From Piedraia hortae CBS 480.64 (lineage: Eukaryota), in assembly GCA_010093745.1 (NCBI GenBank), contig MU006034.1, forward strand, positions 1 to 48,393: a stretch of 48,393 nt of DNA. Reading direction: 5' to 3'. Shown here in pieces: positions 2,608 through 45,551 of the stretch. The notes beneath the pieces are model-generated. The model ran no database searches and was not told where the DNA came from. It saw only the letters and a program-made list of their open reading frames with translations. The position numbers and the translations under genes were made by a program. Each line of letters starts with the position of its first letter. The first letter of the stretch is position 1.

Positions 2608-4593
2608 ATGGCCTTGCCATTCTCATCGTCGCCGGCGTTCGCGACACCGCCAGTCGCCTCTCCTCTCCGCGACACACCTGTCCTGCCTATCCTCCTTACC
2701 CCGGCCGTGATCCGCCCCCTCGCATTTAGAGTCTTCACGAAGAAACACGGCCTATCACTCCACCTCTCCGCGGTCCAATCCTTCGCAGTTTTCATCGGCC
2801 GACAATGCGGATCCGGATGGCGCGAAACAGGCAGCGGCGAAGCAACCCTCGATGAAATCGCACGACTGTGGAAAGCTGAAGAAGGTGGGATTATAGTCTC
2901 GGATGGGGACCGTCTAAAATCAATCTTAAAAACAATCGAAGCGGGGAGCGAACCACCAAAACTCAACCGTGAAGATAGCTACGGACTAAGTAACTTAGCT
3001 GTCACGGACGAAGAACCAACCAACCCGAAAGACTGGCTGAGGGTTCACTCCTCATTCTCCCTCCCACGATTTATCTACAACACCGAGCAGAAAACTTTCG
3101 TCCCACGGAGTGGAAAACCGACCCTCTTACCCCCGGTAGGGCACAAAACCCTCCTCAACACGGAACGTTACAACATCATATACCAACAATTATTGCGAAA
3201 CGAAGCCTTCCAACCCCCTACCATCCCTACAAATGCAAAATCCCACTACAAAATAACACCCATCGCCAACCTCCTAGGCAGAGGCGGGACAACACATCTC
3301 CTCTTCGGCACACTCGTTGTAGCACCAACGGGGAACCTAGCACTAAACGACCCGTCGGGATCAATAACCCTCGACCTATCCCGCGCAGCATGTCCCCTCC
3401 CCAAACCGTACTACTGTCCCGGGATGGTGATCCTCATCGAAGGGATCTATCAGGAAGATTATACCGGCGTGGGGTCGCACCCCCTCGGGGGAGATAATAT
3501 CGGGGGAAGATTTATTGGGTTGACACTAACTCCCCCGCCGGTTGAGAAGAGGAGTGAGACATTTAGCGGTGGCGGGTTTGGGTGGACGGACTTTCTGGGG
3601 ACGGGGTCACACAATGCCGTCGGGGAGAAGATGGTGAGGCTGGAGGAGAAGACGATGGGGAACGAGAAGCGGAAGGCGGTGGTGATGGCAGATCTAACGT
3701 TGGATAAGCCCGCCGTACTGAGAGCGTTGAATGCTGTGTTAGAACGGTACGCTGCCGTACCGCCGCTCGTGTTCATCCTCATGGGCCCGTTCTGCTCCAA
3801 GGCCGCACTCGCGGGCGGGGGGATCGATGCGGTGGGGTATAAGGATTTGTTTGATGGGTTGGCGGGAGTTTTGGGGGAGTTTACGAATTTGTTGAAGAAA
3901 TGTGCGTGGGTTTTTGTACCTGGTGATGGCGATCCGTGGGCGTCCGCGGGCGCAGAGGGGGCGAGTTGTCCCATCCCTAGAGCCGCCGTGCCGGAGTTTT
4001 TTACGGGGAGGGTTAGTAGAGTCGTTGGGAGGGAGGGAGGGGAAGTGATTTGGACGACGAATCCGGCTCGGGTGAGTCTGTTTGGGACGGCGGGGGAGAT
4101 GATTCTGTTTAGAGATGATGTGCATGGGAGGTTGGGGAGGTTGGGGGTCAAGGTGGGTGGGGAAGAGCAGGAGGGGAATGGGAATGGCCATGAGGGAGAT
4201 GTGGAGATGGCTTCGCCCGAGGGGACGTTCAATGGAATTTCGTCGCCCGTGGGAGAGGAACCTACCGGAGAACCCATCCACCGCAACGGAACAGGCAAGA
4301 GTGACGACGAGACTGCGAAGAGGATAATCCTTTCCCTCCTCCCCCAGGCTACTCTCTCCCCGTTTCTACTCTCCTCGAGACCTGTACACTGGGATTACGC
4401 TCAGGCGTTAAGTCTTTATCCTCTTCCGCATACGCTCGTCCTTGCGGATGCAGAGACGAAGCCGTTTGCGATTACATATGAGGGGTGTTTGGTCTGCAAT
4501 CCCGGACGGTTTGTGGAGAGGAATACCGCGACGTGGTTGGAATATGATTTCTGGGAGAAAGGGGCGAGCGTAGAGAGCGTTTGGGTTCGTTAG
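2608..4593 (+). CDS. DPB2: DNA polymerase epsilon subunit B
   Basis: Motifs FSSSPAFATP, LRPLAF-like IRPLAFRVFTKKHGL, ITPIANLLGRGG, FVPGDGDPW, TNPARVSLFG..EMILFRDD, RPVHWDY..ALSLYPLP..LVLAD and YEGCLVCNPG. Start set at ATG 2608; the upstream ATG at 2503 is also possible. Confidence 0.93.
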   Translation: MALPFSSSPAFATPPVASPLRDTPVLPILLTPAVIRPLAFRVFTKKHGLSLHLSAVQSFAVFIGRQCGSGWRETGSGEATLDEIARLWKAEEGGIIVSDGDRLKSILKTIEAGSEPPKLNREDSYGLSNLAVTDEEPTNPKDWLRVHSSFSLPRFIYNTEQKTFVPRSGKPTLLPPVGHKTLLNTERYNIIYQQLLRNEAFQPPTIPTNAKSHYKITPIANLLGRGGTTHLLFGTLVVAPTGNLALNDPSGSITLDLSRAACPLPKPYYCPGMVILIEGIYQEDYTGVGSHPLGGDNIGGRFIGLTLTPPPVEKRSETFSGGGFGWTDFLGTGSHNAVGEKMVRLEEKTMGNEKRKAVVMADLTLDKPAVLRALNAVLERYAAVPPLVFILMGPFCSKAALAGGGIDAVGYKDLFDGLAGVLGEFTNLLKKCAWVFVPGDGDPWASAGAEGASCPIPRAAVPEFFTGRVSRVVGREGGEVIWTTNPARVSLFGTAGEMILFRDDVHGRLGRLGVKVGGEEQEGNGNGHEGDVEMASPEGTFNGISSPVGEEPTGEPIHRNGTGKSDDETAKRIILSLLPQATLSPFLLSSRPVHWDYAQALSLYPLPHTLVLADAETKPFAITYEGCLVCNPGRFVERNTATWLEYDFWEKGASVESVWVR

Positions 4594-4990
4594 GGACAAC
4601 GTTTGGGGACTACACTGGAGTGATTGGAGTATTCCTTTTTGGGGAATCGATGGAGTTGGGAAGAGTATTCGTTTGTACAGAGCTGTTAGATGGGTGGAGA
4701 TATGAAATACCCAGTCAAATGCGAATATAGCCCACGTGGTGCACTCATATATGAAGGTGTCGGTCGTGCAATCTTACAAATCGCCATGGCTGTGAACAAA
4801 GAAACAAACAAAAGAAACTGGAAAAAAAAAGGGAATCGTTGGAGGGTTACGTGGATATTACAATTAACCTTGCAGTTCTTATCGAAAAAACAAGTGCTTC
4901 TCAGACACAGACGTACAAGTTACATGACCATCAAGTACTACTTGACTGCGATCCATACAATAGCAAAACATTACACCCATAACTACACAT

Positions 4991-8462: not shown

Positions 8463-8869
8463 TCCGACGGCTTGTTGCTGAGTGGTGTTTCCGTGACGCT
8501 GACCGAATTCAGTGGGCTAAATTCTTGGCACAACGGGACAGCCCGTGAGCTCGGACCAGGCACGGGAAAGCGGAAGGACTAAACCTGATTTGTAACGACG
8601 CGCCCTGATTGGCGTTGCTAGCGGCGGCGAGTTTGTTTGTTTACATTGGCGACAGATCGTCCCTGCTCAAGCTGCCGCGCGAACGCGCTTCTACATTGCC
8701 AACCACCAGCCTCTTTTGCGCGCAACGATCTCATACTGCTTCGTTGGCCAGAGCGTAGTGAGCAAAGCAATTGGACTACGATAATGCCATTGTGCGCCTC
8801 GCGCAATAACGAAACAGCTGCCCAGTGGTAGCAACAACATTCCGGTCAATTTCGGAACCAGAAGAGACA

Positions 8870-11800
8870 ATGCCCGGCCGTGAATGGGAAGGCCCGCGCG
8901 ATCGGGAGATCAAGCATCAACATTCCTTGTCGGAGAGCGGTCGCTCGAGCGTGCCAATGTAAGCAATCTCGGTCGCGTTTGACCTCGAGAATGCCTTTGC
9001 TAACGAGTATCAAACGCAGGTGGGACAGTTCAGATCCGGAGAGAGCACCCCCTCCTCTTCCCTTTCCCCCAGGCGCCGGCAGCCCTGCAACCAAACACAA
9101 CACGTCCTCTGGTATTGCCGCAGCGGCGAAGAAGTTTGTGGATCAGGCGCGCGAATCCAACTCCTGCAGCGTACACACCCCCCAGGGCTCACCGGAGCGG
9201 AGTCTGGTAAAATCCCAGCATCAGAGGCTGCAGGGCTTCCCAACGGGGAGCGTAAAGGACCTGCGCAGCTATCTTGACGGCGGTCGGTCGCCTGAACGAC
9301 CCGCAAGCAGAGGAGGACTGTCCAACTTCAGCCGCCAGCAGAGCTTTGACGATATATCGTCGCCATTGTCCCAGCGATCATCCACGCCCACTCCTGCCGG
9401 CAGAGACCCGATGAAGGATACGCCGGTGCTGAGACCTTCCACCAGACCTCCGCCCAAAGCCATCCTAGGCGACGGAACACCGCCATCCGCCACCATGTTG
9501 GCGCTTCAGACGATGCATGTGCCGGAGCACCATGCCAGCGAGGCGCCATCCACTCCTACACCTTCCCGTGCCATCCCATCAGCCGACTTCTCCAGCCAGC
9601 TTCGCGATCTGTTGTCCATTACTACCAGTCTTCAGAAAGAGATGGCAGGATTGAACAGGCGCAGCAAAGACAACGCAATCGATCTCATCAGTTTGAAAGA
9701 GGCTACGAACCAACGCGATGAAGACATTCGCAAAAGTCTGCGGGAGCTGGCTAATTCAGTCGCCAAGCACAGTCTACTTAGCCCACCTCCAGCTCACGGC
9801 ATGCTGCGGTGGGAGACGGGATCCGGCGTTGGTTCCGTGGACGGCAAATCCTTCACCTCTCCACCGTCTGTTTCCAAAGGATGGAGCGTCCCGAGGGCTG
9901 CTAGCGCCCACAGCTTCCGCGGCGATGAGCGGTTCTCGCCCTACTCGGTTGAAGGTGCGGCCAGCGTGGCCATGCTGGAGAAGATCATCCGGGAAATGGT
10001 GACCAAAGAGGGCCAGGAGCGGCTGTTGTCTACGCTATCAGAGATCATGGAGAGGAGCCAAAAGGACAATACCGAGGCGGCGAAGAAGGTTGAGGAATTG
10101 TCTGAGTTCATCAAGGAAATGTCCGAGTCGCGGGCATTGGTCATGCATCACGACAGAGGCCCCAAGTTGGAGCTCAACTACGATGCCGATGGTAATCTGG
10201 CTAAGGTCGGGCGCCAAGGGGAGGATGACGAGGTTCTAAAGCTGCTCCACCGTCTCAAGGAGTCGATTGCTCATGCCGGTGGTTCGACCAACGAAGTCAA
10301 GAGCCTTGTGCGTGATCTTCGTGGAGAAGTCCTTGGCATGGGCCGTGAAATCGGCCGCAAGCTAGACCAGATCTCGGGGACGCAGCTCGACAACTCGCTT
10401 GATAAGGGCATCGAGACGGGCCATAGCCATGAACATGCCTCTGAAGTGCAGCGTATCGTCGAAGAAGGCATGGCAGAGCTCAAGCAGCACATCAACAGCC
10501 TGCTGAGAGAACGTGTTGAACGGGATGACGACGCTTTCAAGCAGATTACCACTGTGCAGTCCAACTCGGAGGGCGAAGAGATGTTGGCAATGGTCAGACA
10601 TGCCTTGGCCGAGCATCAGCAAAGTACCTCGCGCGAGGTTGGCCATTCCTTTGACCGTGAAGGCATGATTGAAGCCGTCAAGGATGGTCTCAAGGACTTT
10701 GAGCCCAACATTGAACTGCAGCAGTATGGTTTGGAGCGGGATGAGGTTCTGGCTGTGCTCAGAGAGGGTCTAGAAGACTACCAAGCCAGCAAAGCAGAGT
10801 CCCAGGCGGTTGCCAACATCGACAAGGGCGAGATCTTCGAGGTCATGCAGGAAGCTCTCAAGGATTTTCAGCCTCCCTTCCCTACCGTTGCTCTTGACCA
10901 CATGAAGGAGGAGATTATTGAAAGTGTTCGACAGGCCATTCCTGAGCACCCCCCGGCGCCCTCGGCCATGCCGATTGATATGGATGCTATAAATGCCCAG
11001 GTGTTGGAGGCGGTCAGGGAAGGCCTTGCCAAGCATGGTCCTGCGCCGAGAGAGCTGGAAATCAGCCGCGAGGATCTCTTTGCTGCAGTCAATGCCAGCC
11101 TGGACGGTTCGTCTATCCCCTTTGGAGGCCTCGGTCAGCAAGTGTTGCACCAGATGCAGGAGCTCATCGACAACATTCGGGCTGAGTTCGCTCAATACTC
11201 TGCCGCCAACGGGCGTGATACCGAACAGGTTCTGGATGCAGTCAAAGATGGGCTCGAGTCTCTACGCACCGAAGTCGAATCATACGTCGATCGGGCTCAA
11301 GATGTCACGGGCAAAGACGAGATTGTCGATACCGTCAAGAGCGGTCTGGAACAGCTCCGGGTCGACGTTCAGGGCTACGTGGCCGAGGGTCCAGCCCACG
11401 ACAACGGCAAGCAGGAGATGCTGGACTACATCAAGTCCGAGTTTGAGCACCTGCATGAGGCCATGAACAACCGGGACCTTTCGCGGGAAATCGAAGGCGA
11501 GGCTCCCAAAGCAGATCACACAGCTGAGATTGTGTTTGCCATCAAGGACGGCATCCAGCATCTGAAGCAGCAGATTGACGAGAAGAATCGTGACTTTGAG
11601 ATTGATTTCCCCACCGATGAGATCAACGATGCGCTCAGGGAGGAGTTGGTGCAGCTGCAGACGTCCATACTCCGGGCTAATGCTGCCGACAAGGATGAGA
11701 TCATCGAGACCATCCAGGAAACCATGGGCTCGCTACACTCAAAGTTGAACAACAGCGATGCCAGCACGCTGTCTGGAGGTGCCATGGACGGCATGCTCGA

Positions 11801-14800
11801 GGAGATGCACCACGAGTTTGCCACCCTCAAGGAGACGCTGCAGGTTATGCTTGACGAGAAGGATCTCGGCGGTGATCACGATGCCATCAACCGGGCTGTG
11901 GATGAGCTGAAGGAGCAGCTGATGGCTCGCCAGAGCGAGGTGTCGTCGGAGACGCTGGCAGCTGTCCGGGATGAGCTAGAGAAGTTCAAGGAGGCAATGA
12001 ACAGCTCCGTCGTGTTGGGTAGTGCGGTTCCAGCTGACTATGGCCCTGCGCTGGAAGGAATCCGCGGTGCGATTGACGAGCTTAGGGAGACGTCTCGCAG
12101 CGTTCCGGAAGGTGGATCTGATGAGCTTTTGGAGGCCATGAGGGCCGAGTTTGAGACTCTTCGTCACTCCATTTCCACTACCATGGTCCCCGGTGGCTCC
12201 AACGATGAGGCTCTTGATGCTGTCCGCCTCGGCTTGGATGATTTGAAGACAAAACTCGACGCTCCGCACCGCAATCAGGAGCAGCAGACTGAGATGCTAA
12301 ACACCATCAACGAAGGTCTGGAGAATCTGCGTGCCGAAGTCGTCAAGACACTTGATAAGCCGCAGGATCTGACAGTCAATTACGAGATCCTCGACACGCT
12401 GAAGGAGGGACTTGTTGGGCTGCGTGCCGATGTGGAAGTTCTCAAGGCTAACCACGAGAGTCGCAGCACCGTCGTCCTGGCCGAGAAAGAACAGTCACGG
12501 GATATGCTCGATGAAGACTCTCCCGCCCATCTCAAACCTGCTGATCTGGAGAAGATGGAAGTGCTGCTTGCTCAGCTTCAGATCAAGGTCGAGGCCATGG
12601 ACTCCACTGTTCAGGATATTCCCCACCCTCAGGTCGACCGGATGGCTGCCAAGGAGGATCTGCACGGTTTGGAGGCGATGATCAAGGACGTTCAGGAAAC
12701 CGTCTTGGCCCTCGCAGCCCGTGAGACTGCGTCTGCTGTACCTGAGGGAATCGCCACCAAACAGGACACTGATGCCATCGAGACGCTCCTACGCAACACC
12801 AAGGCTCAACTCGAGGAGATGACGCCGCCGGACATGGAGAATGCAGTGACTAAAGACCATCTCGACGCTCTTGAGGCCGTTGTACGGGTGACAAACGAGG
12901 CCGTTGATGGGATTGTGGAGAAGCTCGAGAACACGACAGCCGCCAAGGCAGACGTAGCCGTGGTCGAGGTTCTTGCTCAGGACGTCAAGGCGTTGTTGGA
13001 AGAGCTAAAGGAGGGCATGGCGCCGTCGGAAGCAAAGACGGAGCCGCTGACCAAGGACGATCTGGATGTTCTCGGCGTTCTCTGCACGGAAATCAAGGCA
13101 AAGCTGAGCGAGATGGACCTGCCCGAGGCGCAGGAGATGCCTACCAAGGCTGATGTCGAGCAGCTCCAGGGACTCATCACCGACTTCCGTGAGAGCCATG
13201 ACAAACTCCGCGATAGCTACGAGAATGACATTGCCATCACGGCCAAGGCGTTTGACGATCGCAAGCAGGAGTTTCAGGATACCATTGACCACATTGGCGG
13301 CGTCAAGGAGGCGCTCAACGAAGTCAAGGAGGAGCTGCTGGCTCGTCTCGGGGAGAGCGATACTGGTATCAATGCACTTGGCACAACGCTCAAGGAGATG
13401 GAGGAGCGCACTGCGGGCCATGAGCCGGTCGTGGCGGAGGTTAAGGAAGTGATGGAAGCTCTCAACCGGGAGTTTGAACGCGCCCACAGCTCCATTGAGG
13501 CTCTCAAAGTCGACCATCTGCAGTCGGCTGAGACGAGTCTGGAGAAACAGGCTGAGCACAAGGACGCAGCCGTGGCCGAGCTGACTGAAAAGCTCGAGGC
13601 GCTCTTCGACGGGCTCATGACTAAATACGACGATGCCCAGCGAGCAGCCGAAGAAAAGGCCAAAGCGGCCGAATCTGATGCCGTCAAGCAGGCCGAAGTT
13701 CTTGAGAATACTCGCACCATGGCCGACGAGCTCAAACTGTCCATCGACACTCTCGGTTCAACACTCACTGGCCTGGCCGAGACCTTTCCGGAGAAAGTCG
13801 ACCAAATGACGGAGGAGTCACGCACCGTTTTCCAACGCGTGGACGAAACGCACGCCAAGGTCGAAGAAGTCCACGACTCCCTCAAGGGCGAACACTCCGC
13901 GACGCGTGAAACAATCTCCCAAGTCCTCACATCCCTCACCGCCGTCCAAAATGACCTTATAGACCACCACCCGCGCTTCCTCGTCAGCCTCGAAGAGCTC
14001 AAAGCCCTCGTAAACCAACAATACGAACACAGTCAAACCGCCAAAACCTCCGCAGCAGAACAACACCAAGCAGTCCGCGACCTGTCTGACCACCTGAAAC
14101 AATCCCTCCAAGAAACCAAAGACTTACACAACTCCCACCTCGACTCCGTCCGCAACGCCCTCCCGGCTCCTATTGAACCCTACAACGACACCGAACTCCA
14201 CACCAAACTCGACACCCTCCTAACCCAAACCCCCCAAATCTCCCTCCTCGACGCCATCCACGAAAAAGTCCTCGCCACCGCTGCCGAAGTGTCCGCCTTC
14301 GTCTCCCAACAAGCGGCCCAAATAACCCAAACCCAAGACCAAGCCGCCAAAGAAGCCGAGGCCCTAGCCCTCGAACTCGAGCGTCGCTCCGCCCAAAAAT
14401 CCTCCCTCGAAGAGGAGACCTCAACCCTCCAATCCGAGCGTTCAGCGCTCCAAGAAGCAATCGCCTCCCTCCGCGCGGAGCGCGAATCCCTAGCCGCGGA
14501 CGTGGCAAGTCTAGAAACCGCGATGCGGATCCGGAGAGAAGAGCTCCATACCATGGATGCCAAAGCCGAAGCGATTGAGAAACGTGTTCGTGATGGGATA
14601 CTCAACCAGTCGAAGTTACTCCTCCTTGCGAAGAAGCCGACCAAGAAAACTAAGAGGGAAGCGGGAGGGAGGGATCTAAGAGTTCCGTCGGCGTCGTCGA
14701 TGAATACTACTACTACCCCCTCTATGAAGACAGCGAAAAGGGCACCTGCGGCGCAGGAGAGGAGGATCATGTCTCTTGGCGAGATTTCGGGGAATTCGAG

Positions 14801-15248
14801 GGCTGCTCCCCCGCCGTCGACGCAGGCGGGCTTCTCGGTGAAAAGGAGTCATTCCGTTCGCTCTGCATGGAAGGCGGCTGGTGCGCCGCAGGGGAAGGAG
14901 AATGCGTTGTTGTTGAAGGATGTGGAGGAGGATGAGGATGATGAGGATGATGTGAGGAGTGAGAGGACGGCGACGTATAGGTCTAGGGGGGGGTCTATTA
15001 CTGAGGAGGGGAGTGTCAGGCCAGAGAGTAGGGGCACGTCTAGGAGAAGCTCATACGCGTCGACGTACGATGATGCGTCGACGTTTCCGGAGGTGCATAG
15101 GGATAGGGGATATGATGAAGAGGGATCAGAGATGGGAGAGGGGAGTTTTTTCTCCGGGAAGGACGAAGAGGATGGAGTAGACCCGCTTCGCGGGAAGAAG
15201 GACTTTGATTCTGGCCTCGGGACGGAGGTTAATGGGACGGTTTTGTAG
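8870..15248 (+). CDS. Large (~2,100 aa) conserved Pezizomycotina coiled-coil protein (SMC/'chromosome segregation ATPase family'-like annotation; function unknown)
   Basis: Exon 1 is 8870-8958 (MPGREWEG...SVPM). The intron at 8959-9019 (GTAAGC...GCTAAC...CAG) joins it to WDSSDPERAPPPLP. A 6.2-kb open frame follows, with extensive heptad-like E/L/K-rich sequence. Confidence 0.85.
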
Positions 15249-15257
15249 TTTGCTAGT

Positions 15258-15259
<2 letters not shown>

Positions 15260-15295
<36 letters not shown>
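15260..15295 (+). repeat. Poly-G homopolymer (36 nt)
   Basis: Uninterrupted G run starting 12 nt after the stop codon at 15248. Confidence 0.95.
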
Positions 15296-15297
<2 letters not shown>

Positions 15298-15532
15298 GGA
15301 GTATGATATGGTTATGTGCAGATTTTTCCTCGCTCACCCTGGAACCGTATTCATGTAGGAAGTTGTGGACAGTGAACATTTTTCTACCCCTTTACAAATT
15401 GCTACTTCGTGGGAGTATTCTAATGTGACAGAACTTCAGCTTTCCAGCCATTACCCCGTAGGGAGAATAGAGTTGATACTTCTCGTCTCTTCTCGGAGTC
15501 AGTAAGATTAAGAACTTTTCATATATCAATAT

Positions 15533-16741
15533 CTAATACCACTTCACCTCCTTGCCACGCAGGATGCCAAGTCTATCGTACAAGCTCCTCGCACGCACAT
15601 ACGGGTCTAAACGCCAGTAGTTGTCTTTCATGGCAGTGGCCGTAGTCTGCCTTTCAGACTGAACAGCATCATCGCCGGCGATCCAACGCTTCGTCTCGTC
15701 CTCGAAGCGGGTTACCAGTGCAGCCCGGTCTGCCTCAATCTTGGCTTTAGTATCAGCGTCTCGCATCTGATCATCCTCACCGGGATTTGGCTCGACATAG
15801 GAATAAGTAAACTGCTCATCACCGCCGAGCTCTTTCATTATGTGCTCGCGTGGGATGTATTCTTCCAGCTCTGAGACTTTGCTTACAAAGTGCACCTTGG
15901 CCGCTACCACCGGGTCAAGCCAGCCGCGGATGACCTTCCATATGCCCTGGAAGACCCACGGGCTCTTATATACGAGCACCTGACCGAGAGATTCCGGGTA
16001 ATTCGCCTCGAAGCACTTGATCATGAACTTGACGGGCGTGTAGTCCATGTTGGCAAGGGTGAAATCTGTCATGTCGAAGACGATGGTAGCGGTATCGACG
16101 GGCGGGCGGAGAAGCATGCGGCCGGTTTCAATGGTCCACACGGTAAAGCGCTCCAAGGCGGCATCGCTCTGCTCGCCACTGCGGTGCAGCCTCACACGGA
16201 CGTAGCAGCACGGCCGCCCCGCTCTATCAATGCCATGGAAAAATGACTTGCCCATGCGCAGCTGCGTCATAAACTCGTCGTTGGCACCTGCCTCCCCTTT
16301 AAACATGATATCCGAGTCCACCTGCGTCTCCCGCCTCCATTGCAGCGTCGCGACAGCCATAACCAACGCCGCAGAAACATCCCATTTACGCGCCCGCAGG
16401 AACCGCAGTAGCAGCGCATCCGGGTGGTCGTGTTTAGCCATCCCCCACAGCGCCTCGCGCAACTCCGCCGGCGACATTTGCGCCAGAGCCTCCTTGAATA
16501 CGCGGTTCTGTCCATGCTTGTCATTATCCCCCGCTTCCGCTTCGACGGACTTGTCCTTCTTCTTGAACATCGACAACCGCTTGCCCTTCTTCGGCGTATG
16601 CTCCTCGCTCGCCGCGTCTGAGACTGCGCGCGTCGACCTCGTGCCGGACGTCAACTCGAAGATTTCCGTCCACATTTCTTTTAGTTTTGCAGTCTGCTCG
16701 GCCGTGAGGTTTCCCGGCCTTCCGGGCTGTTGCGTCGCCAT
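15533..16741 (-). CDS. CSR1: CRAL/TRIO (Sec14-like) phosphatidylinositol transfer protein, CSR1/SFH2-type
   Basis: Motifs PGRPGNLT, KHDHPDALLLRFLRARKWDV, FDMTDFTLANMDYTPVKFMIKCFEANYPESLG, WLDPVVAAKVHF and YWRLDPYVRARSLYDR. An in-frame upstream ATG at 16891 could add about 50 aa. Confidence 0.9.
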   Translation of the reverse strand: MATQQPGRPGNLTAEQTAKLKEMWTEIFELTSGTRSTRAVSDAASEEHTPKKGKRLSMFKKKDKSVEAEAGDNDKHGQNRVFKEALAQMSPAELREALWGMAKHDHPDALLLRFLRARKWDVSAALVMAVATLQWRRETQVDSDIMFKGEAGANDEFMTQLRMGKSFFHGIDRAGRPCCYVRVRLHRSGEQSDAALERFTVWTIETGRMLLRPPVDTATIVFDMTDFTLANMDYTPVKFMIKCFEANYPESLGQVLVYKSPWVFQGIWKVIRGWLDPVVAAKVHFVSKVSELEEYIPREHIMKELGGDEQFTYSYVEPNPGEDDQMRDADTKAKIEADRAALVTRFEDETKRWIAGDDAVQSERQTTATAMKDNYWRLDPYVRARSLYDRLGILRGKEVKWY

Positions 16742-17488
16742 GGTAGGTGTTTCGGTCGGCTTGGACGGGGTCAAGGTTCCGGCAACGAGTCCACCTGAGA
16801 GAAAGAATAAACACAAAGGACTCACTGCACTGCGTCGCGCGTATCTGTAGCGGAGAGTGATCGTTGGCCTGAACCAGTTCAGCCGCGGCATCAATCTTCG
16901 TTAGCCGTGGCCGTTTTCCACGCAATGGCGTCGGTCGTGACGTCAGAGTTGTGATGTTTCGGTTATAGGGAGTGTGAATGATCCACTGGCTGGATAGGCA
17001 TGCTATGGAGGATATAACTGTATTAGGAGCTGGATATGGTAGGGATCATGTTCATGCTGATTGCCATGATGCTGTCAGGGAAGGTCGGGCGGCCCGACCC
17101 AGCCCGGTTCGTGCTTGGCGTTGGCTGCCCCATATCTGGAGGAAACTTTCGCGGGGTTATTATTTGATTTGACCTTTGTGTGTACACAGCACTTGCAAGA
17201 GCCTGCTCAGCGACCGGATAACCCAACATTGGAGAGGGATTCAGCCTAAGCTGGCTAGAGACTAGGGGAAGTGGCTCATGCCATTCGTGATACGGAAACT
17301 CAAGTCGTTGCATCTTGAACGGCCGGTACTACACCGAAAACCTCAATAACCCAGAGCGAGAGAACTTACCGACTTAAAACCTCACCTCCCTTTCTAGCTG
17401 AATAACGACACCTCGAACTTGCCGACGCTTTCTTTCCCCAACCTTACCGAAATAAACATGTCCCATTTTTACTCTACCAACAATGTAG

Positions 17489-18016
17489 CCTTACTACGAA
17501 ACCTCACCCCGAAAGTCCAATCCTTCAACCCCAGAAACCCTCAAATCCCTCCCCAACCTAAGAGCCAAACCTCACAAACCGCCGCAGCACCCAACTAACC
17601 AATCCCACCCCCCGGAAATCCTATCCCAGAAACATCCACCAAAATCCAGGAATGACCAAACAAAAACCCGAATCCCCTCCAACGAACTCCACGAAGTCCC
17701 TCTTCTCACCTCCCTCGTCCAGGCCGCAACTTCACCCCCCTTCGAATTACAGCGTACCACCAAAGCCACAGTCTTAGAAACACGCCGCAATGTTTTTTAC
17801 TCCTTGCACGATCTCAAAGAATTACATCTTACCCTCCCGGAATGGGTCAGGGGAGAGGACATATACACCCTCCCGTCTGAAAAGCTGCGCTGTCTTGTTG
17901 CCCACCCAGTGACGATCTCGGAGATCACGGATAGGGAGTTTGAGGCTGTGTTCGGATTTTTTGCGGGTTGTGTTGTCACCAGGGCTTACGTGTTTAAGGC
18001 GCTGGGGAGGCTGTAG
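17489..18016 (+). CDS. Possible terminal exon of a hypothetical protein
   Basis: The frame is open from a TAG acceptor at 17486-17488 to the stop at 18016 (PYYETSPRK...LETRRNVFYSLHDLKELHLTLPEWVRGED...KALGRL). Upstream exons were not resolved and no family was recognised. Confidence 0.35.
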   Translation, partial: PYYETSPRKSNPSTPETLKSLPNLRAKPHKPPQHPTNQSHPPEILSQKHPPKSRNDQTKTRIPSNELHEVPLLTSLVQAATSPPFELQRTTKATVLETRRNVFYSLHDLKELHLTLPEWVRGEDIYTLPSEKLRCLVAHPVTISEITDREFEAVFGFFAGCVVTRAYVFKALGRL

Positions 18017-18180
18017 TGTGTTGTCGAAAGGTTTGTTTCGTACGGAGTTGTGTTTGGTGATTTGGCTGGGGTGTGGGGTGGGGTGGGGTGTTGCGTGGCA
18101 TGCTCCGGATTTTGGGGTGAAATAAGGGCTTAGGGATCGATTGAGGTGGGTGCATATTTCGGGGTGTGAGAGGGTGGGAG

Positions 18181-30417: not shown

Positions 30418-30516
30418 AATACCTATACTGGATTGCTCTACATATCGATACTCATATCGACTAAGAGGATGGAGAGATTATGCTTATGCATAGAACTATG
30501 TACATGTACAGACGAC

Positions 30517-32358: not shown

Positions 32359-32418
32359 GTTCCAGGGTGAGGTTTGGGGCGGGAAGATCCGCCCGCGGGA
32401 ATGCCAAGACTCGGCCGG

Positions 32419-32480
32419 CGACGACGACAACGACGACAACGACGACAACGACGACGACGACGACGACGACAACAACAACG
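32419..32480. repeat. Imperfect trinucleotide microsatellite (GAC/AAC)n in a divergent intergenic region
   Basis: Sequence gacgacgacaacgacgacaacgacgacaac...gacaacaacaac. Confidence 0.9.
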
Positions 32481-32485
32481 TCACG

Positions 32486-32973
32486 ATGTCCAGACCCCAG
32501 CCCTTTAGCTGCTTACGATGCGCATCAAAACGGCAGATCCGCCATGCATCCTACTTGAAACGTCCAAAGCGACCCTACACTTTCACCCAGCTCGTCACGC
32601 TGTCGGACGGCAGCACCTTTCTCCACCGAACAACCTCGCCGCAGCCGGTATACAAGAGCACAAAGGACACAAAAAACTCGGCGCTGTGGAATCCGAGTAG
32701 TCAGAAACTGTTGAATGTGGAGGAGGATGTTGCGGGCAGGCTTAAAAGGTTCAGACAACGGTTTGGTCGCGGTTTCGATGCCGCTGCATTGGAGCAGGGT
32801 GAAGACGTATGTTTGTCTCTATCAGATGCGCCAGAACGATGCTGACAGAACTATAGACGGCAGATGCCGCCCAGAATGCAGCCGATCAAGAGGAAAGCTT
32901 GATGGATCTCATCTCGGGATTCGCAGAGCCAGCTCAGGCTGACAAGGAGAAGAAGGAAAAGGGAAAGAAATGA
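32486..32973 (+). CDS. MRPL36: Mitochondrial ribosomal protein bL31m (YmL36); 2 exons
   Basis: Motif RPKRPYTFTQLVTLSDGSTFLHRTTSPQPVYKSTKDTKNSALWNPS...GRLKRFRQRFGRGFD. Intron at 32807-32856; ends ESLMDLISGF...KGKK*. Confidence 0.9.
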
Positions 32974-33110
32974 TGTCTTCCGGTAATGCGCAAATAGCTG
33001 TACGATAGAAGTTGCAAGAGACATGACGGCCCGGCCCGCATCGCTCAACCGCCGTCACTCATCAAGGATCCGCATGGCGCCGGGCGAGTTGCGCTGGCGT
33101 CTGGTGTATA

Positions 33111-35209: not shown

Positions 35210-37712
35210 ATGAAGTTCTTGACTGCGCTGGGCATTTTTGCCTTGGCCATTGATATGACCCGAGCTTGTGTGTTTTGATGATGCCGCTACCTGTTCTTGC
35301 TGACGATATGAAGATGTTATAGGCCATCCTGACAATTGCACCCTTTCAGTCCACCCCATGCCTACTGGTCATCACAGCGGGCACCCATGCAAAGGGGTCA
35401 ACGGGAGTTGCAGCATCCCAAGCACTCTTGCAACGGCACCTTCAGAGACTGTTGAGCCCATTCTCACCTCCAACTTGCCGTACGGTTTCCCGCTACCTTA
35501 TTCGCACTCGACAGCTCCGGGGTCTTCGGTTGTCGTCCCATCGAGTGCTGGATCCATTCAGCCTAGCGTCACTTCTATTCCTCTACCTCCTCCTCCGTCG
35601 CCTCCGGCTAATTCGAGCTCGGCGACCCCTTCGTCCTCTGAAGCGGTTGAGCCAGTGCTGACCTCTGTGCCGCCAACAAGCTTAACGGTGGCACCTTCGA
35701 GCTCGACTATCTCTTCGTCCACTGAATCTGTCGAGCCAGTGTTGACTTCTTTGCTTCCAACAATCTCACCAGTGGCACCTTCGTTATCTGGACTTCCACG
35801 CACATGCAGCGTGGGAGCCGACGGGAGTTGCGAGGATGTCTCGTCTACAATTTCCACCCTTCCATCTCCGCCTTCTTACACCTATATGCCTCCGAATATC
35901 CCACCTAAGCCGAGCTCGAGCTCAATGGGGCCTATACTGATCTCTACGGCTAGTTCTGTTCCGTCGGAATCTCCATCTACAAGCTCACCATCGATTGAAC
36001 CTATCCTTAGCACTACAGTTGCTCCTATCCCGTCCTTCACTGGCTTGCCTCGTACATGCAGCGTTGTGGTCAATGGAAGCTGCGTGAATGCCCCTTCTAC
36101 AACCACTAGCTCATCCTCAGAATCAGTTGAACCGATCTTGACCTCGCTGCCGCTGCCAACAAACACCTCGACGGCTTATATTCCTTCATTCACCGGTATG
36201 CCTCACACATGCAGTGTCATGGTCAACGGAAGTTGTTATACAACTGCTCCCTTGCCGACTACAACAACGGTATCTTCATCGGAATCAGTTGAGCCGATTT
36301 TGACCTCTCTACCACTGCCAACAGATACTTCAACGGCGACATATCCTCCATACAATCCTTCTTTCACCGGCCTGCCTCGCACATGCAGCGTCATGGTCAA
36401 CGGTAGCTGTGTGGCTTCAACGACCTTGCCCGTGTCCATCAGCTCAACCATATCACTCACCATGACGGTTCCCACCAGCTCAAGCTCGGAGTCAGTTGAA
36501 CCCATTCTGACTTCCCTACCGGCCACGACTACTGTTTCCACCTCGATCCCGTTGCCGCTCCCTGTGAATTCAAGTACGAGCTCAGAGGCGGTTGTGCCGA
36601 CTTTGACGTCTCTACCGCCGCCGCCGCCTGTTCATTCTTCCCATACACAAACCAGCTCGAGGGTGAGATCTTCGTACAAGCATTCGACTGCAACGAAGTC
36701 CTCTTCTTCTACAGTCTCCTCCAGTTCCAGCACCCTGCTCAGCACAGCGACGACCCCTGGAAGTTCAACTAGCTCCTCAAGCTCGCCGTCAGCTGAGCCA
36801 ACATACTCTAGCGTCTCAAGTACATGCAGCATGATGGTGAACGGAAGCTGTGTCTCTGCTCCGGTAGCCACGTCCACCCCTCCACCAAGCTCAGCTGCAC
36901 CAAGCTTCTCATCTTCCTCATCCAGCTCTGAATCAGTCGAACCAATCCTCACCTCCCTCCCGCCCACTACAACCCCAACCCCATCATCTTCCGGCCTACC
37001 TCGCACCTGCAGCGTTGGCACGGGTGGGAACTGTGACGAGACGTCTTCTTCTTCATCCGTCTCTCCCTTGACCTCGACGGAATTGTCCACGTCTGTCCCG
37101 ACTTCAACGGAAGCGTCTTCAACCGTCATTTCGATGGAGTCGTCCACGATCATCTCAACCTCGACGGAGTCATCCTCCATCCCCACCTCGACAGAGACGG
37201 TATCGTCTTCTTTCGTCTCTCCCACGACCTCGACGAAATCATCTTCCTCCGTCGCCACTGCAACGGCGTCATCTACCTCCATCCTCACTTCGACTGTGAC
37301 GGAGTCGGCCACGCCCGTCCCAACCTCAACTTCAACCTCGACGGAGTCATCTTCCTCTGTTCTCACTTCGACTGAAACACCTTCCGCCGCCTTGACCTTG
37401 ACGGAGTCATCCTCTGTCCCCACGTCAGCTTCGTCCGTCGCCACCTCAACAGAGCCATCAACCTCTCCCTCGACCACTCCCACCCCCTCTTCCTCGACCA
37501 ACATCCCCACATCCCTAATCACCGTCGAACTCACAAGCATGAGTACATTCACCCTCATCCCAACGTCCACCTCATCCGAATCAGTCGAACCCGTCCTCAC
37601 TTCAACAACTACTCCCCTTCCGTCGTACGGAGGCGGATACGGATACGGAAACCCAAAGGGGTATGGGCCTTCGTCTTCCACTCTCAAGATCGGGAGGTTT
37701 TTCTTGCACTAA
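35210..37712 (+). CDS. Secreted Ser/Thr/Pro-rich repeat glycoprotein (cell-wall/adhesin-like); 2 exons
   Basis: Signal peptide MKFLTALGIFALAIDMTRA in exon 35210-35267. The intron at 35268-35313 joins in frame to the long ORF. Repeated SESVEPILTSLP and GLPRTCSVxVNGSC modules. Confidence 0.8.
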
Positions 37713-38019
37713 GATGGAATAAGAGATAGGGACGTTTGAGTAGGTAGTTAGGTAGTTGAATATATATATCTTTTTGGGGGCTTTTCTCTTCAGGGTTTTG
37801 GGGGTGATGCATTCGTTCTTATATGTATGGTGATTTTGTGGTCGCGAAAGGGTATGCATATTGCCGGGAAATAATACCTAAACATGGTTGGCGAGGTAAT
37901 GTTTAGTATTAAGGTTTGGGGATTGAGTTTAGGTTTCCAGGGTGGTGGTTTGGATTGCGGTGCAGGATGAGTGACTCTGATGGAAAGATTTTGATCTGAC
38001 AGTATGGTGGTCTGACCTA

Positions 38020-39650: not shown

Positions 39651-40474
39651 TGGCTACTCGAGGCCTCCTAAATTAACGCGAACGACAGCCTTGGCAGATC
39701 TGGTAAAAGCCATGGTCAGGCAAGCTCGCTTTCGTGCTGAGCGCTGCGTCCTCTGCGCGCCGATTGCAACCGTCACTGCACGTTGGTAGATCCTCACCAC
39801 GAACTCCAAAGGAGCGCCTGTGCGGCGACAATGGGAACAAAAAAGTATGTTTGTTGATGAGGAAACTTGGCCTGCTAACTGGATCCGAAATTGACATAAA
39901 GTGGGGGCCACGTGAGTCTTGGCGCACAATTGCGTTATTAGACTTTTTGGTGGACTTGGAGTGTACCCGCGCTAGCCAAATTGAGCTCATTGCTTAGAGA
40001 TGTATAAATGTACACTCGTTTACTCTTTTTTTTTTTTTTGTTGTGGCTGCCAATCGTGCGAGTCAAGTAGGTTTAACTTTGGCCTCGTGTGGTCTGAAAA
40101 GGGGACAGATTAGCATGCCTAGACCACGCAACACTTTTCGGGCTACGATTAGACTTGGGTTGTACGAATGTACCATTCAGTTAACTCCATGTTTTGTGCA
40201 GCAAAAAGGGTGTATAGCGCAAACTCCATTGGTAACGGAACGGCTGCATGCAAACCGTCTTCATAGTTGTATTCATCCACCAGCTCAGCCGCAATTTCAA
40301 TTCCCCCATTAAGTCATAGTCATGATCCAAGCTGCGATAAGCATTCCACCTCCTCCAGAAGTAATCAAAGTTGAGAGATACCACATGTCATCAGGGAAGA
40401 ACAAAGTACATATACAAATGCCTCAACCATTCCCAATTCATTAACGATCTCACACTCTGATCTCTTCGTCCCCA

Positions 40475-43400
40475 TTACCTCCATTGCCGAAACAACCCCG
40501 AGCTTTCCTCCTCCCCTTCCACTCCCCTTTCGCAGGAGCGGGCGCGGGAACCTCTACCTCTTCTTATTCCACCGGCTACTCTTCTTCTCCCACCTCCTCC
40601 TCCTCCCATTCTTGTACCTTCTTCGCCCGTTCCCCTCGTCCCTTGGGCTCGGCTGCGGGTGCCTTCTTCTTCCACATTGAGACGGGGCAGGCTCCTGCTG
40701 CTTAGCCAACTTCTCCTCTTCACGCTTCTTCCTAGTCAGAATCGCTTCGTTGGCCTTAACGGCCGCTTTGCGGTGGAGAAGAACTGCGCGCGGAAGTTCC
40801 TCTTCTGCGAGCGCAGGAGGCTCTACAGTCTTTGCCTTTTCCTTATTTCTGGCCGTGGCTTTCTTGGCGGGGGCTTCATGCATTGGCTGCGCTGGTTCAT
40901 CAGACTCCGCAGCCTCAGCCTCGGCAGGTTCAGCTGCTTCGACAGCTTCGGCAGGTTCTGCAGCCTCCTTCCTAGCTTTCGCCCTAGCCTGGGCTTCGCA
41001 GGTGCTTTCTCCTTGGTGGGGGCTTTCCTCTTCCGCGTGGCCTTTTTCTTGGCAGGCGAGGCCGGTTTGGGTGATCCTTCCTTCTTTTGTGCAGGGGCGG
41101 GGGAAGCTTGCAGCGTTTTTGCAATTTCGGCCGGGAATTGTACGTTTTGCGGTGGCTCTGCCATTCCTTCGTTTTCTGGCGAAAGAGATTCTTCGGGGAA
41201 TTCTTCCTCGGGGAATCCTTCTGCGATTTCTGGGTGAACTTGTTGAGACGGCAAGCCCTGGGGTGGGATTGGGAGTGAAGGGGATGGGGGTGGTACATCT
41301 GGTCGTGCAGAGGATGAGACCGGTTGTGGAGGTGCCGCCGCTGGAGATCTAGAAGCACGCAAGGACTTTGGTGCTGGAGCGCGTATGGGCGTTTGAGTCC
41401 GATGGCCCGAAGACGCAACATGTCCAGATGTTCCCGCGGCTGCGGATGCAGAGGCTGCGGCTGCCGCTGGTGCCGTGGGTGTGGGCGTGCTTCTTGGGCT
41501 CTTCTTTTGGCGCGGATCAGCCTCGGCGTCCACGGCCAGGTGATTGAGGGATGCTTGGGACGGCTGTATAGGCGGCGCAGGTGGTACTTCTGTCGGCTAT
41601 GGCACCGGTGGCATGTCGTCGTCCACGTTCATTGGTCCGGGTTGTGTTGCTTTGACCACTTCCTTGGCTATTTCTTTGGCAAGCTCCCTTCCTTCACTGG
41701 GAATGTAGGCTTTGAAGGGGAGTCCTGGTTCGCCTCCGCCAGGAAAGTGGACGTTCCTGTCGTAGTTTCGCTGTGGCTTTATGGTCTTGTCTTGATGAAA
41801 TACAGGATCTTCGTGCAGCTTTTTGCCCACATTGAATCTCTCCTTGAACGGGAGCCAGTAGCAGTTGCCCCAATCGCCCTTGAAGATTCCGAAGCCAGGA
41901 TCATTGGCCAGGGCGTCGCGCAATTCAATACGCATATTTCGAACAATGATTTCCCCATTTTCGTCGAGGAGTTTTCCCTGGTCCAGAAGTTTTTTTCTGC
42001 TCAATGTCTTCTGCGTGTGCCTTTCGGATCAAGTTCAGAATCTCGCTGTATGAAGGCCTGTTGTCAGGATCGTCGGCCAGGCATTCCTCCACTGGGCCGG
42101 TCAGCTATGCACTATAGTTGCTCTTGCACCACGGGTCGAGTTGAACTTGATCGCGGAGGGTTGACGGGTCACGCTCAACCACGGACTTTTGATCCCAGGC
42201 AATATAGTTGTCAGCATTAGAAGCCAGGTCGATGCATGACCACAGCACAATGCCTAGGCCACATATATCGCTTCTGAGGGTGGGCAGCTCATTACCTTCC
42301 ACCACTTCACGTCCCCTCGCGTCCCTTGTGTCGACATTTAACCAGTCGGTTGATACATACTCATAATCTCGAGAGATAATGCATGCTAGGCCAAAACTCG
42401 CAGTCTTCGGATTGGGGTATACCCAATATCGGTTTACGGAAGGAGTGCCGAGGACAATGTTGTTCGATTTGATATCGCGATGAAAGATTTGTTCCCACTG
42501 GATGAAAAAAAGCGCCATGCGGGATCGGTTTCGTCCAGTGTACCGTATGTCATGATTTGACCCACCCTGGCCATAGACTCCACCAAGTGCCAAAGGAGGG
42601 GCTCTGGAATCATGCCCAAAACAGACTTCGCGTTGTTTCCCACAATTCGGCGCAGCTTATGGAAGCCCCAACCCGTCGGGTCTGCCCTATCATCCATGAT
42701 CATTCCATCAACATCGTCCAGGGGGCAGTATTCCATATAAAGCCGAAGTCGATAAAAGTACACTAGCTCTTTATAGTGAATCCTGTAGTTGCGTATGGCG
42801 GTAATGTTCTCGGAGCCAACAAGATTGCGCATTAGGTATGGTGCCATAATCTCAGTTGGGATAAATTTTTTATCGGGCTTGAACATCCAGGTCCAATTTT
42901 CGACACCTACGCTACCGGTTTTGACTGCAATTCGGTCGGTAATCATTCGCTGATCGTTGAGTTGTACCCATAAGACAACTTGCCCGAAGCCTCCCGATTA
43001 CATTGGCCACGTTCCAACCCAGTCTTGCGGCATGTGAAATGCCTTGCGAACAGCCTCATGCTTATTACGAAGTTCTTCCAAGTTCTCACTGGTAGGTTCA
43101 GGTGGCTCTACACAAGGCCATAGATCCCCAGGCCAACGAATCCACTTTTTCCATCTCCGCCTTATCTTTCTCCAGAAGGTTCAATACTTCCGAAATATAG
43201 GGTAGATCCGCCAAAGGCTTCAACATTCGGATAAGAGTGAACAACATAGCAATCAATCTACTTGCCACCCGTTTGTAATCATTGACGAATTTCTTAGACA
43301 CATGTTGGTATGATTCTCCATAGTTGGTTGGATAAACTGCGAGCAAGATTTCAAATTTATTGTCAACGGTCTCGTAAGCCTAGGTGATACGCCCAAGGTC

Positions 43401-43634: not shown

Positions 43635-44603
43635 CTTGGTTGGTAGCGGGTGGGTATCCAAAATGCCCTTACAGAACCTCATGGGGAATCTTTGCGTAGA
43701 CCATAAACGAGACATAAAGGATTTGTCTAGACAAAGACCAATGCGGCCGGTTTCCGGATGCAGTGCTCATTATCTGTCACTTGGCTGATCCGAACTGTTG
43801 ACAGGATATGACCCGTCGCATCACGGAAGAGAGTTCTGCCTATCCAAACTTATAATGGCCACTTGATTGCCATGGCATTTCGCAAGACCTGCATGACGCT
43901 TGAGAATTGTTTGCAAACAGGCTTGGTTTTTGTCCATGATGATGCGGAAACGAAAACGCTAAAGCCCAAGTCCCGCAAAGGAAGAATCACGTGCCATAAC
44001 AAACCTCCAACGGAACCGTCTGATGGGGTTGTTTCCCAGGCTTGATGATTAACAGAAGCAGAAGTGCGCCCACGATGCGCAGTGAGGGAGCTCGTGTGTC
44101 CGTGGGGGATCCCGTCGGAGCGGCCCGTGCCGCACTTTGACGCGTTCGCGTAGAGCAGTCTATGGAGAACACAATACGATCTTACCAGCTAGTTGCAACT
44201 ATCCGCCGTTTCGCTCTATATAGCATACCGACTATCATACACGACTCCTCTTGCTGTAGAATATTCAGATCGGTGTCGACGCGGCTCCTTCTGCTGCCGA
44301 GATACCGTCGTGCCTTTGAGCGTCGTGGAAGCACATCGATTAGCTCGGCTCGATGCGTTCCAGGCTAGGCAAATGTTGCAGTCTTCACACTAATAACCTT
44401 GAGTCTCAACTAAGTAGGGCGCAAGGCCTTTGGAAAGTCTTCCACAACGCAGGCTTGCCTCACCATCGTAAGCATGAAGAAGATGCAGCCGATCCGCGCA
44501 CACCAAACTAGGCAAACAGTGCATGTCCAGTGAATGTTAAAAGAATGTTCCAGGCTGCATTCCCTTACACCCCTCAAAGACTCTCGTTCCTCTTCACGGC
44601 AAT

Positions 44604-45551
44604 TTAACAAATTCTCCTCGGCCACGATGGGAGGGGCAACCTATGCCTTTCCTGTCTAACCTCCGTATAACACCTCCTTCCCATCGCAATCAAATCCGCC
44701 TTCGTCGGCCTATCCCTTTTCCTCGTCGCCAACGAATCCAATATAAGCCTCATGATTCCGGGGTCATCCGTAGCCGGATACATACTCAACCTTTTCCTAA
44801 CCTCATCCCTCCCATTTGCCAGTCTTCCCCGATTAAACAATGTTGTGGTGACGACCTCCCACAACGTAGCCCCAAACCCAAAGATATCCGATTCAGCAGT
44901 CATCACACACAACCTATCCGCAGCCTCCGGAGTCGTCTCATATCGCCAGGCTTCGGGAGGGGTGTATCTCATGGTGCCCGACACACCTCTTGAGTTTCTC
45001 TCGAGACACGCCAGTCCAAAATCCCCCAACACGATTTCCGGTAACTCCGGTATGTCCGATCTACGGTTCCAGCGCAGGAAGACATTGCCTGGCTTAATAT
45101 CGTTATGGATAACTGTCTTGTGTCCCGGCTCTACCCGCCCGGATTCGTGAATGTTGCGGATCCCGTGGTGGATGTACATCAAGGCCGAGACGAGGCTGGC
45201 AATGAAGTGTTTGATAAAGATTCGCGGCATGGCTTCCGGTCTGCGCTTCTGCCAGTGCTCAATCATTCTGTTGAGGTCCCCGCCGTTGCAGCATTCGAAA
45301 ACCAAATCCCATTTGCTGCCGTGGCTGTGGGAGGAGAAGCCCTGGAGGGTTATGATGTTTGTGTGTGGGCAGAGGATGTTGTAGAGGAAGATGATTTCAA
45401 GAGGGCGTTGTTGGCGGCTGCTGGAGGTGGAGCGGATGGTTTTGATAACGACAAATTTTCCCGTAGTTTCGTTTTGGGCCAAACGTGCCTGCCCGCCGCC
45501 TGTGCGGCCAAAGTGCCGGATGATGCAGTATACAACTGGACTATTCGGCAT
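44604..45551 (-). CDS. Ser/Thr protein kinase (divergent, NimA/NEK-like fold), apparently intact
   Basis: Motifs FGRTGGGQA, VVIK, FECCNGGDL, IHNDIKPGNVFL, LGDFGLA, GTMRYTPPE and SDIFGFG. First ATG at 45551; the ORF track starts it at TTG 45677. Confidence 0.85.
   Translation of the reverse strand: MPNSPVVYCIIRHFGRTGGGQARLAQNETTGKFVVIKTIRSTSSSRQQRPLEIIFLYNILCPHTNIITLQGFSSHSHGSKWDLVFECCNGGDLNRMIEHWQKRRPEAMPRIFIKHFIASLVSALMYIHHGIRNIHESGRVEPGHKTVIHNDIKPGNVFLRWNRRSDIPELPEIVLGDFGLACLERNSRGVSGTMRYTPPEAWRYETTPEAADRLCVMTAESDIFGFGATLWEVVTTTLFNRGRLANGRDEVRKRLSMYPATDDPGIMRLILDSLATRKRDRPTKADLIAMGRRCYTEVRQERHRLPLPSWPRRIC

Follow-up and report, generated by a model that had tools for sequence, protein, structure and literature searches.

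Gene-anchored C-to-G skew units of unusually large amplitude in a contig of the fungus Piedraia hortae

Abrupt changes of strand composition inside genes raise the question of which process writes them, and whether this process is centred on particular sites in the DNA or on the genes themselves. The question is posed here by a single contig of Piedraia hortae CBS 480.64 (MU006034.1; 48,393 nt, 53% G+C), which was analysed over its whole length (hereafter, the window). At several places in this contig, the + strand is strongly C/A-rich, flips to G/T-rich, and then returns to balanced sequence. The original prediction, made from the sequence alone, read these bipartite units as cutting across genes and as the trace of a strand-asymmetric mutation or repair process centred on fixed sites. 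Dense replication origins, double-strand-break (DSB) hotspots, and R-loop or fold-back structures were its candidates. The present analysis established the anatomy of the units, their anchoring to genes, their presence at silent and non-coding sites, and their recurrence in other fungi. They are probably a gene-anchored polar skew of the kind reported by McLean and Tirosh (2011, BMC Genomics 12:638, PMC3315797), of unusually large amplitude and with a transcription-coupled bias as its cause.

Anatomy of the units and their anchoring to genes

Computed over 200 nt, the GC skew drops to values from -0.6 to -0.66 and, in the space of a few hundred bases, climbs to values from +0.6 to +0.71. The minima of the cumulative G-C count, which mark the switches, lie at positions 3420, 14495, 17838, 19039, 22759, 29724, 30834, 37621, and 45140, with a tenth, weaker minimum at 40989. 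The nine switch points initially listed each fall about 80 nt or less from one of these minima, and the hand counts that accompanied them proved exact (C28/G6 at 14161-14220 and C5/G27 at 14941-15000; C28/G7 at 3361-3420 and C4/G32 at 4141-4200). Sharp flips, defined by 400-nt arms with an absolute skew of at least 0.3, run six times from C to G and once from G to C, the latter at 18470, between two abutting units. When the window was shuffled in 400-nt blocks (100 shuffles), C-to-G flips averaged 1.0 with a maximum of three, and no shuffle reached six. The predicted order, C first and then G, is thus borne out.

The assembly was checked over 13001-33000 against contig pieces of two sequencing runs, X1 (2015) and X2 (2019). 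Among the pieces listed, no letter differs from the window, with the exception of one X1 piece on the repeat at 18181-18323, which carries 14 other letters. The table of differing letters between these runs and the window holds places only at 17226-17229 and in two repeats, and the contigs of X2, a run whose RNA label is only a guess, skip three stretches of 44-51 nt with GT..AG or CT..AC ends. Since the contigs of two runs reproduce it, the sequence is real and not an assembly artefact. Rfam and tRNA scans of the window returned no match.

The skew is pronounced at silent sites. At the pooled four-fold degenerate sites of the arms that lie 5' in coding sense (n=892), C makes up 0.55 and G 0.14, with a GC skew of -0.60 and an AT skew of +0.31. 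In the 3' arms (n=571), G makes up 0.53 and C 0.18, with skews of +0.50 and -0.20, and outside the arms (n=3537) the two values are -0.04 and -0.06. Relative to this background, C is raised and G and T are lowered in the 5' arm, G is raised and C and A are lowered in the 3' arm, and the G+C share at these sites moves from 0.60 to about 0.69. Non-coding DNA behaves similarly: left arms (n=938) have a GC skew of -0.48 and an AT skew of +0.25, the values being +0.65 and -0.23 for right arms (n=677), and -0.01 and -0.06 elsewhere (n=18231). The skew calculation that had been proposed for four-fold and non-coding sites, once run on the window, therefore revealed no vanishing of the signal, and the continuation of the skew into untranslated regions (UTRs) and flanking DNA is confirmed. 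Because it is present at full strength at both kinds of site, the skew acts at the nucleic-acid level.

It might still be argued that protein composition or ordinary codon-usage bias causes the pattern, since amino-acid composition does move with the arms: codon position 3 has the strongest skew, positions 1 and 2 follow the arms, and amino-acid usage is shifted along. The long C-rich stretch of a Ser/Thr-rich gene described below lies mostly at codon position 2. For DPB2, the gene that carries the first unit, 46 orthologues show an amino-acid gradient of the same sign, albeit a weaker one (skew contrast of 0.34 +/- 0.045, versus 0.53 here). These points are outweighed by the four-fold sites, where the skew is strongest, by the UTRs and flanks, which are equally skewed, and by the inability of a codon preference to go from C-ending to G-ending codons inside one gene. 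Moreover, the DNA-level C-to-G contrast of DPB2 (0.53) is missing in all of 56 orthologous loci from fungal metagenome contigs (mean -0.04, standard deviation 0.15, maximum 0.47; 0/56 reach 0.53). Judging from these sequences, the DPB2 unit is lineage-specific. Protein composition or codon usage as the cause is largely refuted and retains very little probability, in line with the initial statement that protein composition does not explain the skew. None of the three findings named in advance as speaking against the pattern was obtained, namely a loss of skew at silent or non-coding sites, flips equally frequent both ways, or a codon pattern common to orthologs.

The nine main units each lie inside one gene, on the plus strand for six of them and on the minus strand for three, and all run from C to G in coding sense. 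The coding strand is C/A-rich upstream and then G/T-rich over a terminal 0.1-1.1 kb that crosses the stop codon and enters the 3' UTR. Short genes, namely the open reading frame (ORF) at 17489, DAM1, and the kinase gene at 44604-45551, hold one unit each, which starts about 150-300 nt 5' of the ATG and ends 30-250 nt beyond the stop codon. In longer genes (coiled-coil, SLM1, flavin reductase), the unit is the final 1-1.6 kb. A coding strand that goes from C to G keeps this order under reverse complementation. Units in genes of either orientation therefore show C before G on the + strand, with the G-to-C returns located between genes.

This anchoring was quantified with an automated walker that finds the end of the G arm in coding sense, a unit being scored when that end lies between -60 and +450 nt past the stop of the switch-bearing gene. 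Six of the nine units are scored, with G-arm ends at -37 to +249 nt from the stop. Circular shifts gave 1.2 on average, and 4 out of 2000 shifts reached six. The original prediction consequently has to be corrected in two respects. The units do not cut across genes, each being within one transcription unit on either strand, and a centring of the process on fixed sites across genes is not supported, given that the units are gene-anchored, with G arms that end near the stop far more often than in shifted controls.

Individual units and repeats of the window

The DPB2 unit (2900-4700, + strand, switch 3420) was delimited on the skew profile in the gene for DNA polymerase epsilon subunit B (2341-4593; Pfam PF04042). 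Its C/A arm extends up to 3420, and its G/T arm covers 3420-4260 and 4400-4700, split by a conserved protein segment (limits by eye). Four-fold counts within the latter arm reach, for example, G20 C1 at 3991-4140, and the arm ends about 100 nt beyond the stop, as estimated by eye from the skew profile. The next unit (13700-15296, + strand, switch 14495) forms the final 1.6 kb of a coiled-coil gene, the 2138-aa ORF 8832-15248. Four-fold sites at 14232-14381 count G2 C24 A1 T1, and the G arm ends about 50 nt past the stop by eye, in a 36-nt poly-G run (15260-15295) that begins 12 nt beyond it. The X1 and X2 contigs both break at this run.

Two abutting units follow on the + strand. The first (17330-18420, switch 17838) comprises the whole small gene ORF 17489-18016 with its flanks. 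The second (18560-19440, switch 19039) comprises the entire DAM1 gene (Pfam DASH_Dam1; ATG 18731, stop 19360) with its UTRs, and its G arm ends 29 nt beyond the stop. On the - strand, the unit at 22290-23480 (switch 22759) covers the 3' two-thirds of an SLM1-like gene with BAR-like and PH domains (22504-23922); in coding sense it is C-rich, then G-rich, reaching into the 3' UTR. The HRT3-like F-box gene (28807-30417) carries a unit at 29100-30010 (+ strand, switch 29724) whose G arm is short, ending about 400 nt short of the stop codon. The neighbouring unit at 30450-31560 (- strand, switch 30834) occupies the 3' half of a flavin-reductase-like gene (30517-32550). Upstream of the flavin-reductase-like domain of this minus-strand gene, positions 32407-32479 consist of GAC/AAC triplets on the + strand (GTC/GTT on the coding strand), which would give a Val run if translated; their local skew is separate from the units.

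The unit at 37380-38000 (+ strand, switch 37621) lies where a gene for a Ser/Thr-rich repeat protein (35304-37712) reaches its 3' end. Here, the G/T arm lies within the 3' UTR, and the upstream C-richness comes mainly from amino-acid composition (codon position 2). The ORF itself encodes 802 aa in diverged repeat modules of 50-96 nt, is without a Pfam family, and looks like a mucin-like or cell-wall protein. The tenth, weaker C-to-G unit (40300-41600, strand unassigned, switch 40989) falls in low-complexity T-rich sequence without a Pfam family. The last one (44450-45700, - strand, switch 45140) spans a whole protein-kinase gene and its UTRs, with the stop at 44604 and the likely ATG at about 45551. 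The Pfam gene map of the window comprises DPB2, tyrosinase, RPL27e, the 2138-aa coiled-coil ORF, Sec14-like, DAM1, SLM1-like, XPG-like, and Tma16 genes, as well as those for a mitochondrial carrier, DHHC, HRT3-like F-box, flavin-reductase-like, bL31, SPIN90, two kinase, and F-box/YccV proteins.

Repeats are also present. A 143-nt element occurs twice, at 287-427 and 18181-18323, in inverted orientation and with 94-98% likeness. In DNA run X1, its contig depth is about 920 versus about 12 around it; such a depth is not a copy number. Depth and the many variant contigs point to a high-copy repeat resembling a miniature inverted-repeat transposable element or a short interspersed nuclear element, with no Rfam or tRNA match for the element. 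The copy at 18181-18323 sits unskewed within the G/T arm of the ORF 17489-18016 unit, and so was inserted after the skew was established. A second repeated stretch, at about 21980-22170, has a depth of about 124 versus 12 and several variant letters, and one contig in each of runs X1 and X2 joins 22174 back to 18181, beside the 143-nt element.

Recurrence in other fungi and relation to published patterns

For comparison, 80 fungal contigs carrying DPB2 homologues were used (about 934 kb). The closest DPB2 proteins, among 5.8 billion, share 47-49% identity and belong to Teratosphaeriaceae and other Dothideomycetes, with no close relative in that set. Across the comparators, from which only exact duplicates were removed for the flip counts (near-duplicates were kept), 53 sharp flips run from C to G versus 24 from G to C (p=0.0013). 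Of these, 51/53 C-to-G flips are inside ORFs of at least 150 aa, versus 7/24 in the opposite direction, and the switches lie at a median of 334 nt from the 3' end of the ORF. In comparator ORFs of at least 300 aa, the four-fold GC skew climbs over the last 300 codons in 184 of 261 cases (mean +0.18, p=1.5e-14). The metaprofile reads +0.05 to +0.18 in the last 300 nt versus -0.17 to -0.28 just upstream, and also contains a small AT flip, weaker than that of the window. In individual contigs, nearly every gene ends in a G spike; in the metagenomic fungal contig L051 (8400-21000), for example, this 3' spike is about 300 nt long, with a skew of 0.45-0.67. Arm length appears to differ between lineages.

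The distinctive trait of the window lies in the size of its units. By simple dispersion (the standard deviation of the 200-nt skew), the window is ordinary, 22/61 comparator loci being equal or higher. A large-excursion measure was applied to 38 de-duplicated comparator contigs (678 kb), counting minima flanked on either side by a net G-C of at least 130. It finds six large units in the window (1.24 per 10 kb) and eight in the comparators (0.12 per 10 kb); no comparator contig attains the density of the window. With a threshold of 100, the densities are 1.65 and 0.46 per 10 kb, and 2/38 contigs reach that of the window. On the large-excursion measure only, this is a lineage with unusually large units, whose density is about ten times that of the comparators.

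McLean and Tirosh described fungal genes whose GC skew has opposite signs at the two ends, in a species list that includes filamentous fungi, two Dothideomycetes among them (PMC3315797). The original statement that no description of the pattern at such density was known in filamentous fungi is accordingly not supported as far as the pattern itself goes. That report finds an upstream C bias and a 3' G bias on the coding strand, present at four-fold sites, reaching promoters and 3' UTRs, and altering amino-acid usage; AT skews are flat, and the cause is left unexplained. The authors also put forward a cytidine triphosphate (CTP) hypothesis, according to which C-rich starts and C-poor ends pace RNA polymerase II. 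The nine units studied here agree with this pattern in sign and in both gene orientations, in their presence at four-fold sites (-0.60/+0.50 versus -0.04 outside arms), in their extension to UTRs and promoters, and in the accompanying amino-acid shift. They differ in several respects: the amplitude is larger here, as those four-fold values hold over whole arms; the strong C arm of long genes adjoins the G arm and not the start codon; and strong units are found in some genes only, the genes being split between strong and near-zero classes.

Related composition biases are known from other systems. The coding strand is C- and A-rich near the ATG in the Dothideomycete Leptosphaeria maculans (Bourras 2012, PMC3411245), and a coding-strand C excess near transcription and translation starts was found in plants and fungi (Fujimori 2005, PMC555766). 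This excess matches the units of short genes at their left boundary. In the two reports, it takes the form of a narrow peak near -50 from the ATG, with neither 0.4-0.9-kb arms nor a 3' G/T arm. In human genes, GC skew and R-loops occur at both the 5' and 3' ends, the latter linked to termination (Ginno 2013, PMC3787257). The G-rich non-template strand at human gene 3' ends is a likeness to the present units, whereas the G skew downstream of the start site in human promoters has the opposite sign to the fungal 5' arm. A literature search, with subscription journals outside its coverage, retrieved no later account of a mechanism and no description of units this size.

Proposed cause, rival explanations and significance

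Substitutions were polarised in six triplets of closely related comparator contigs, which yielded 206 changes in zones with an absolute skew of at least 0.2. These come from other species, with codon positions pooled, small counts, and several tests. On the G-rich strand, A>G changes exceed T>C (46 vs 20, p=0.006), C>G changes exceed G>C (10 vs 8, a 2.6-fold difference per base, p=0.04), and T>G changes exceed A>C (10 vs 3, 3.7-fold per base, p=0.05). No C>T/G>A asymmetry was seen in the skewed zones of these relatives (27 vs 53, a per-base ratio of 1.07), and G gains and losses are near balance (66 vs 76). On the coding strand of C-rich zones within ORFs, T>C changes exceed A>G (23 vs 6, p=0.001). 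The skew is maintained by a bias to G on one strand, and to C on the other, and not by cytosine deamination. In DPB2 of the window, amino-acid changes were polarised against the 46 orthologues, the C arm gaining C from A and G, and the G arm gaining G from A, C, and T, at a divergence (47-49% identity) too large for a clean spectrum.

The most likely cause is a substitution bias that is coupled to transcription, differs between the strands, and could be mutational or act at fixation. Its sign would change along the transcription unit, being directed towards C on the coding strand in the body of the gene and towards G near its 3' end. Part of the original prediction is kept here, namely a strand-asymmetric process that is directional, acts at the nucleic-acid level, and is ongoing in related contigs; the part that placed it at fixed sites across genes is abandoned.

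Several observations weigh against a gene-anchored, transcription-coupled bias. Three of the nine units (DPB2, coiled-coil, and HRT3) miss the 3'-end interval of the automated test. The walker halts at the first dip, so that arm lengths are under-called for DPB2 and the coiled-coil gene; HRT3 is a genuine exception, its G arm ending about 400 nt before the stop. Only 8 of the 15 long ORFs of the window show a rise of four-fold skew over their last 300 codons, with contrasts of 0.78-0.91 in four ORFs and of -0.37 to +0.25 in the other eleven, including seven negative values (-0.37 to -0.07). RPL27e, Sec14, DHHC, and the mitochondrial carrier have little or no gradient, and the skew profile places no unit on a ribosomal protein gene. 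In the 2138-aa gene, the C arm meets the G arm 5 kb from the start codon, which is a misfit with a ramp anchored at the gene start. The AT skew flips here (from +0.31 to -0.20 at four-fold sites), whereas it is flat in the McLean and Tirosh report, uniform AT skew being a descriptive and not a defining trait of that report. The evidence for an ongoing bias is drawn from other fungi, all codon positions, and small counts. Within it, G-rich coding zones have no A>G/T>C asymmetry (9 vs 9, in only 41 changes), and the coding-strand T>C excess could partly reflect a preference for C-ending codons.

The main rival shares the same anatomy and differs in its cause. According to this explanation, selection on the nucleic acid would favour G-rich non-template 3' ends that aid R-loop- or G-quadruplex-assisted termination in a compact genome, or would pace the polymerase as in the CTP hypothesis. 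It can draw on an adaptive hypothesis already stated in PMC3315797, on G arms that end at or just beyond the stop (once in the 36-nt poly-G run), and on the near balance of G gains and losses in relatives, which implies that the skew is maintained. G-quadruplex-type motifs are also suggestive at first sight. The window holds 17 of them, 10 on the + strand and 7 on the - strand; the former all fall in right arms, nine of them in the main units and one in the 40989 unit, and four of the latter fall in left arms. However, such motifs follow trivially from the skew and are thus not independent evidence. Furthermore, the set of genes that carry strong units is not conserved and many genes are without units, which would be odd for a general termination or pacing device. 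Selection is therefore considered unlikely, even though it stands ahead of the other alternatives.

A further possibility, more doubtful than selection, is that sense and antisense transcription together generate the units in a bistable, self-reinforcing manner. The displaced non-template strand near the transcript 3' end, in an R-loop or a paused bubble, would gain G from A, C, and T, and more G would stabilise the R-loop, leading to further strand exposure. On this view, the 3' zone of the sense transcript would correspond to the G/T arm, and that of an antisense transcript starting at the gene's terminator would correspond to the C/A arm. If true, this would explain the mirror-image arms, the C arm that adjoins the G arm 5 kb into a long gene, and the existence of strong and near-zero gene classes, and the known C-skew of fungal promoters could likewise arise from the 3' ends of antisense transcripts.

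Mirror-image composition around a point is known from replication origins and from strand-switching mutation clusters at resected DSBs, two of the remaining candidates. The scale, density, and gene anchoring of the units do not fit either. Meiotic or mitotic DSB hotspots at the switch points, with single-stranded DNA damage or error-prone synthesis over resected arms, would produce a pattern that is bidirectional around a point, and arms of 0.4-0.8 kb would be close to the lengths resected in yeast meiosis. Such hotspots do not predict the gene anchoring found here: transcript ends delimit the units, which are tied to stop codons, and the comparator C-to-G flips share this placement (51/53 inside ORFs, at a median of 334 nt from the ORF end). 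In addition, cytosine deamination of 3' tails would be expected to deplete C from the strand that is actually C-rich, and the relatives lack the C>T/G>A asymmetry (per-base ratio of 1.07). Break hotspots are thus highly improbable.

Replication origins packed very densely, with G/T-rich leading strands leaving each switch in opposite directions, fare worse still. A C-to-G switch on the + strand has the same sign as at bacterial origins; origins would nevertheless be expected at a spacing of tens of kb, with skew over the replicon arm and a placement independent of gene ends. None of this agrees with ten switches in 43 kb, a skew that is back to zero within 0.4-1.1 kb, and arm ends that match gene ends on both strands. 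The proposed motif search, run over +/-120 nt around the switch points, found no discrete motif. CCTCCC/GGGAGG-type words are present in 9/9 switch windows (95% random limit of 7), and reflect arm composition because these windows include the arms; beyond such arm-typical words, the switches have no motif in common. Origins can accordingly be set aside almost entirely. The same applies to long RNA or DNA fold-backs between the C/A and G/U arms, which are complementary in composition, since among the inverted repeats listed by the repeat search none connects one arm of a unit with the other, the minimum free energies of four units are near those of arm-shuffled controls (z = -1.8, -2.6, -0.2, and +0.2), and the share of inter-arm pairs (0.39-0.68) does not exceed that of controls with separately shuffled arms (0.46-0.73).

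The contig is a strong, large-unit example of a known fungal pattern, and neither a new class of element nor a marker of origins or hotspots. Gene-polar skew in fungi has been without an agreed cause since 2011. Here, the signal is readable gene by gene, with whole arms nearly devoid of one base at silent sites. Given a complete assembly together with stranded RNA and polymorphism data, a genome of this kind could separate a mutational from a selective cause, and test whether antisense transcription or R-loops play a part. More generally, gene-polar skew distorts codon-usage, amino-acid composition, and phylogenetic analyses, and should not be taken as a sign of replication origins or recombination hotspots.

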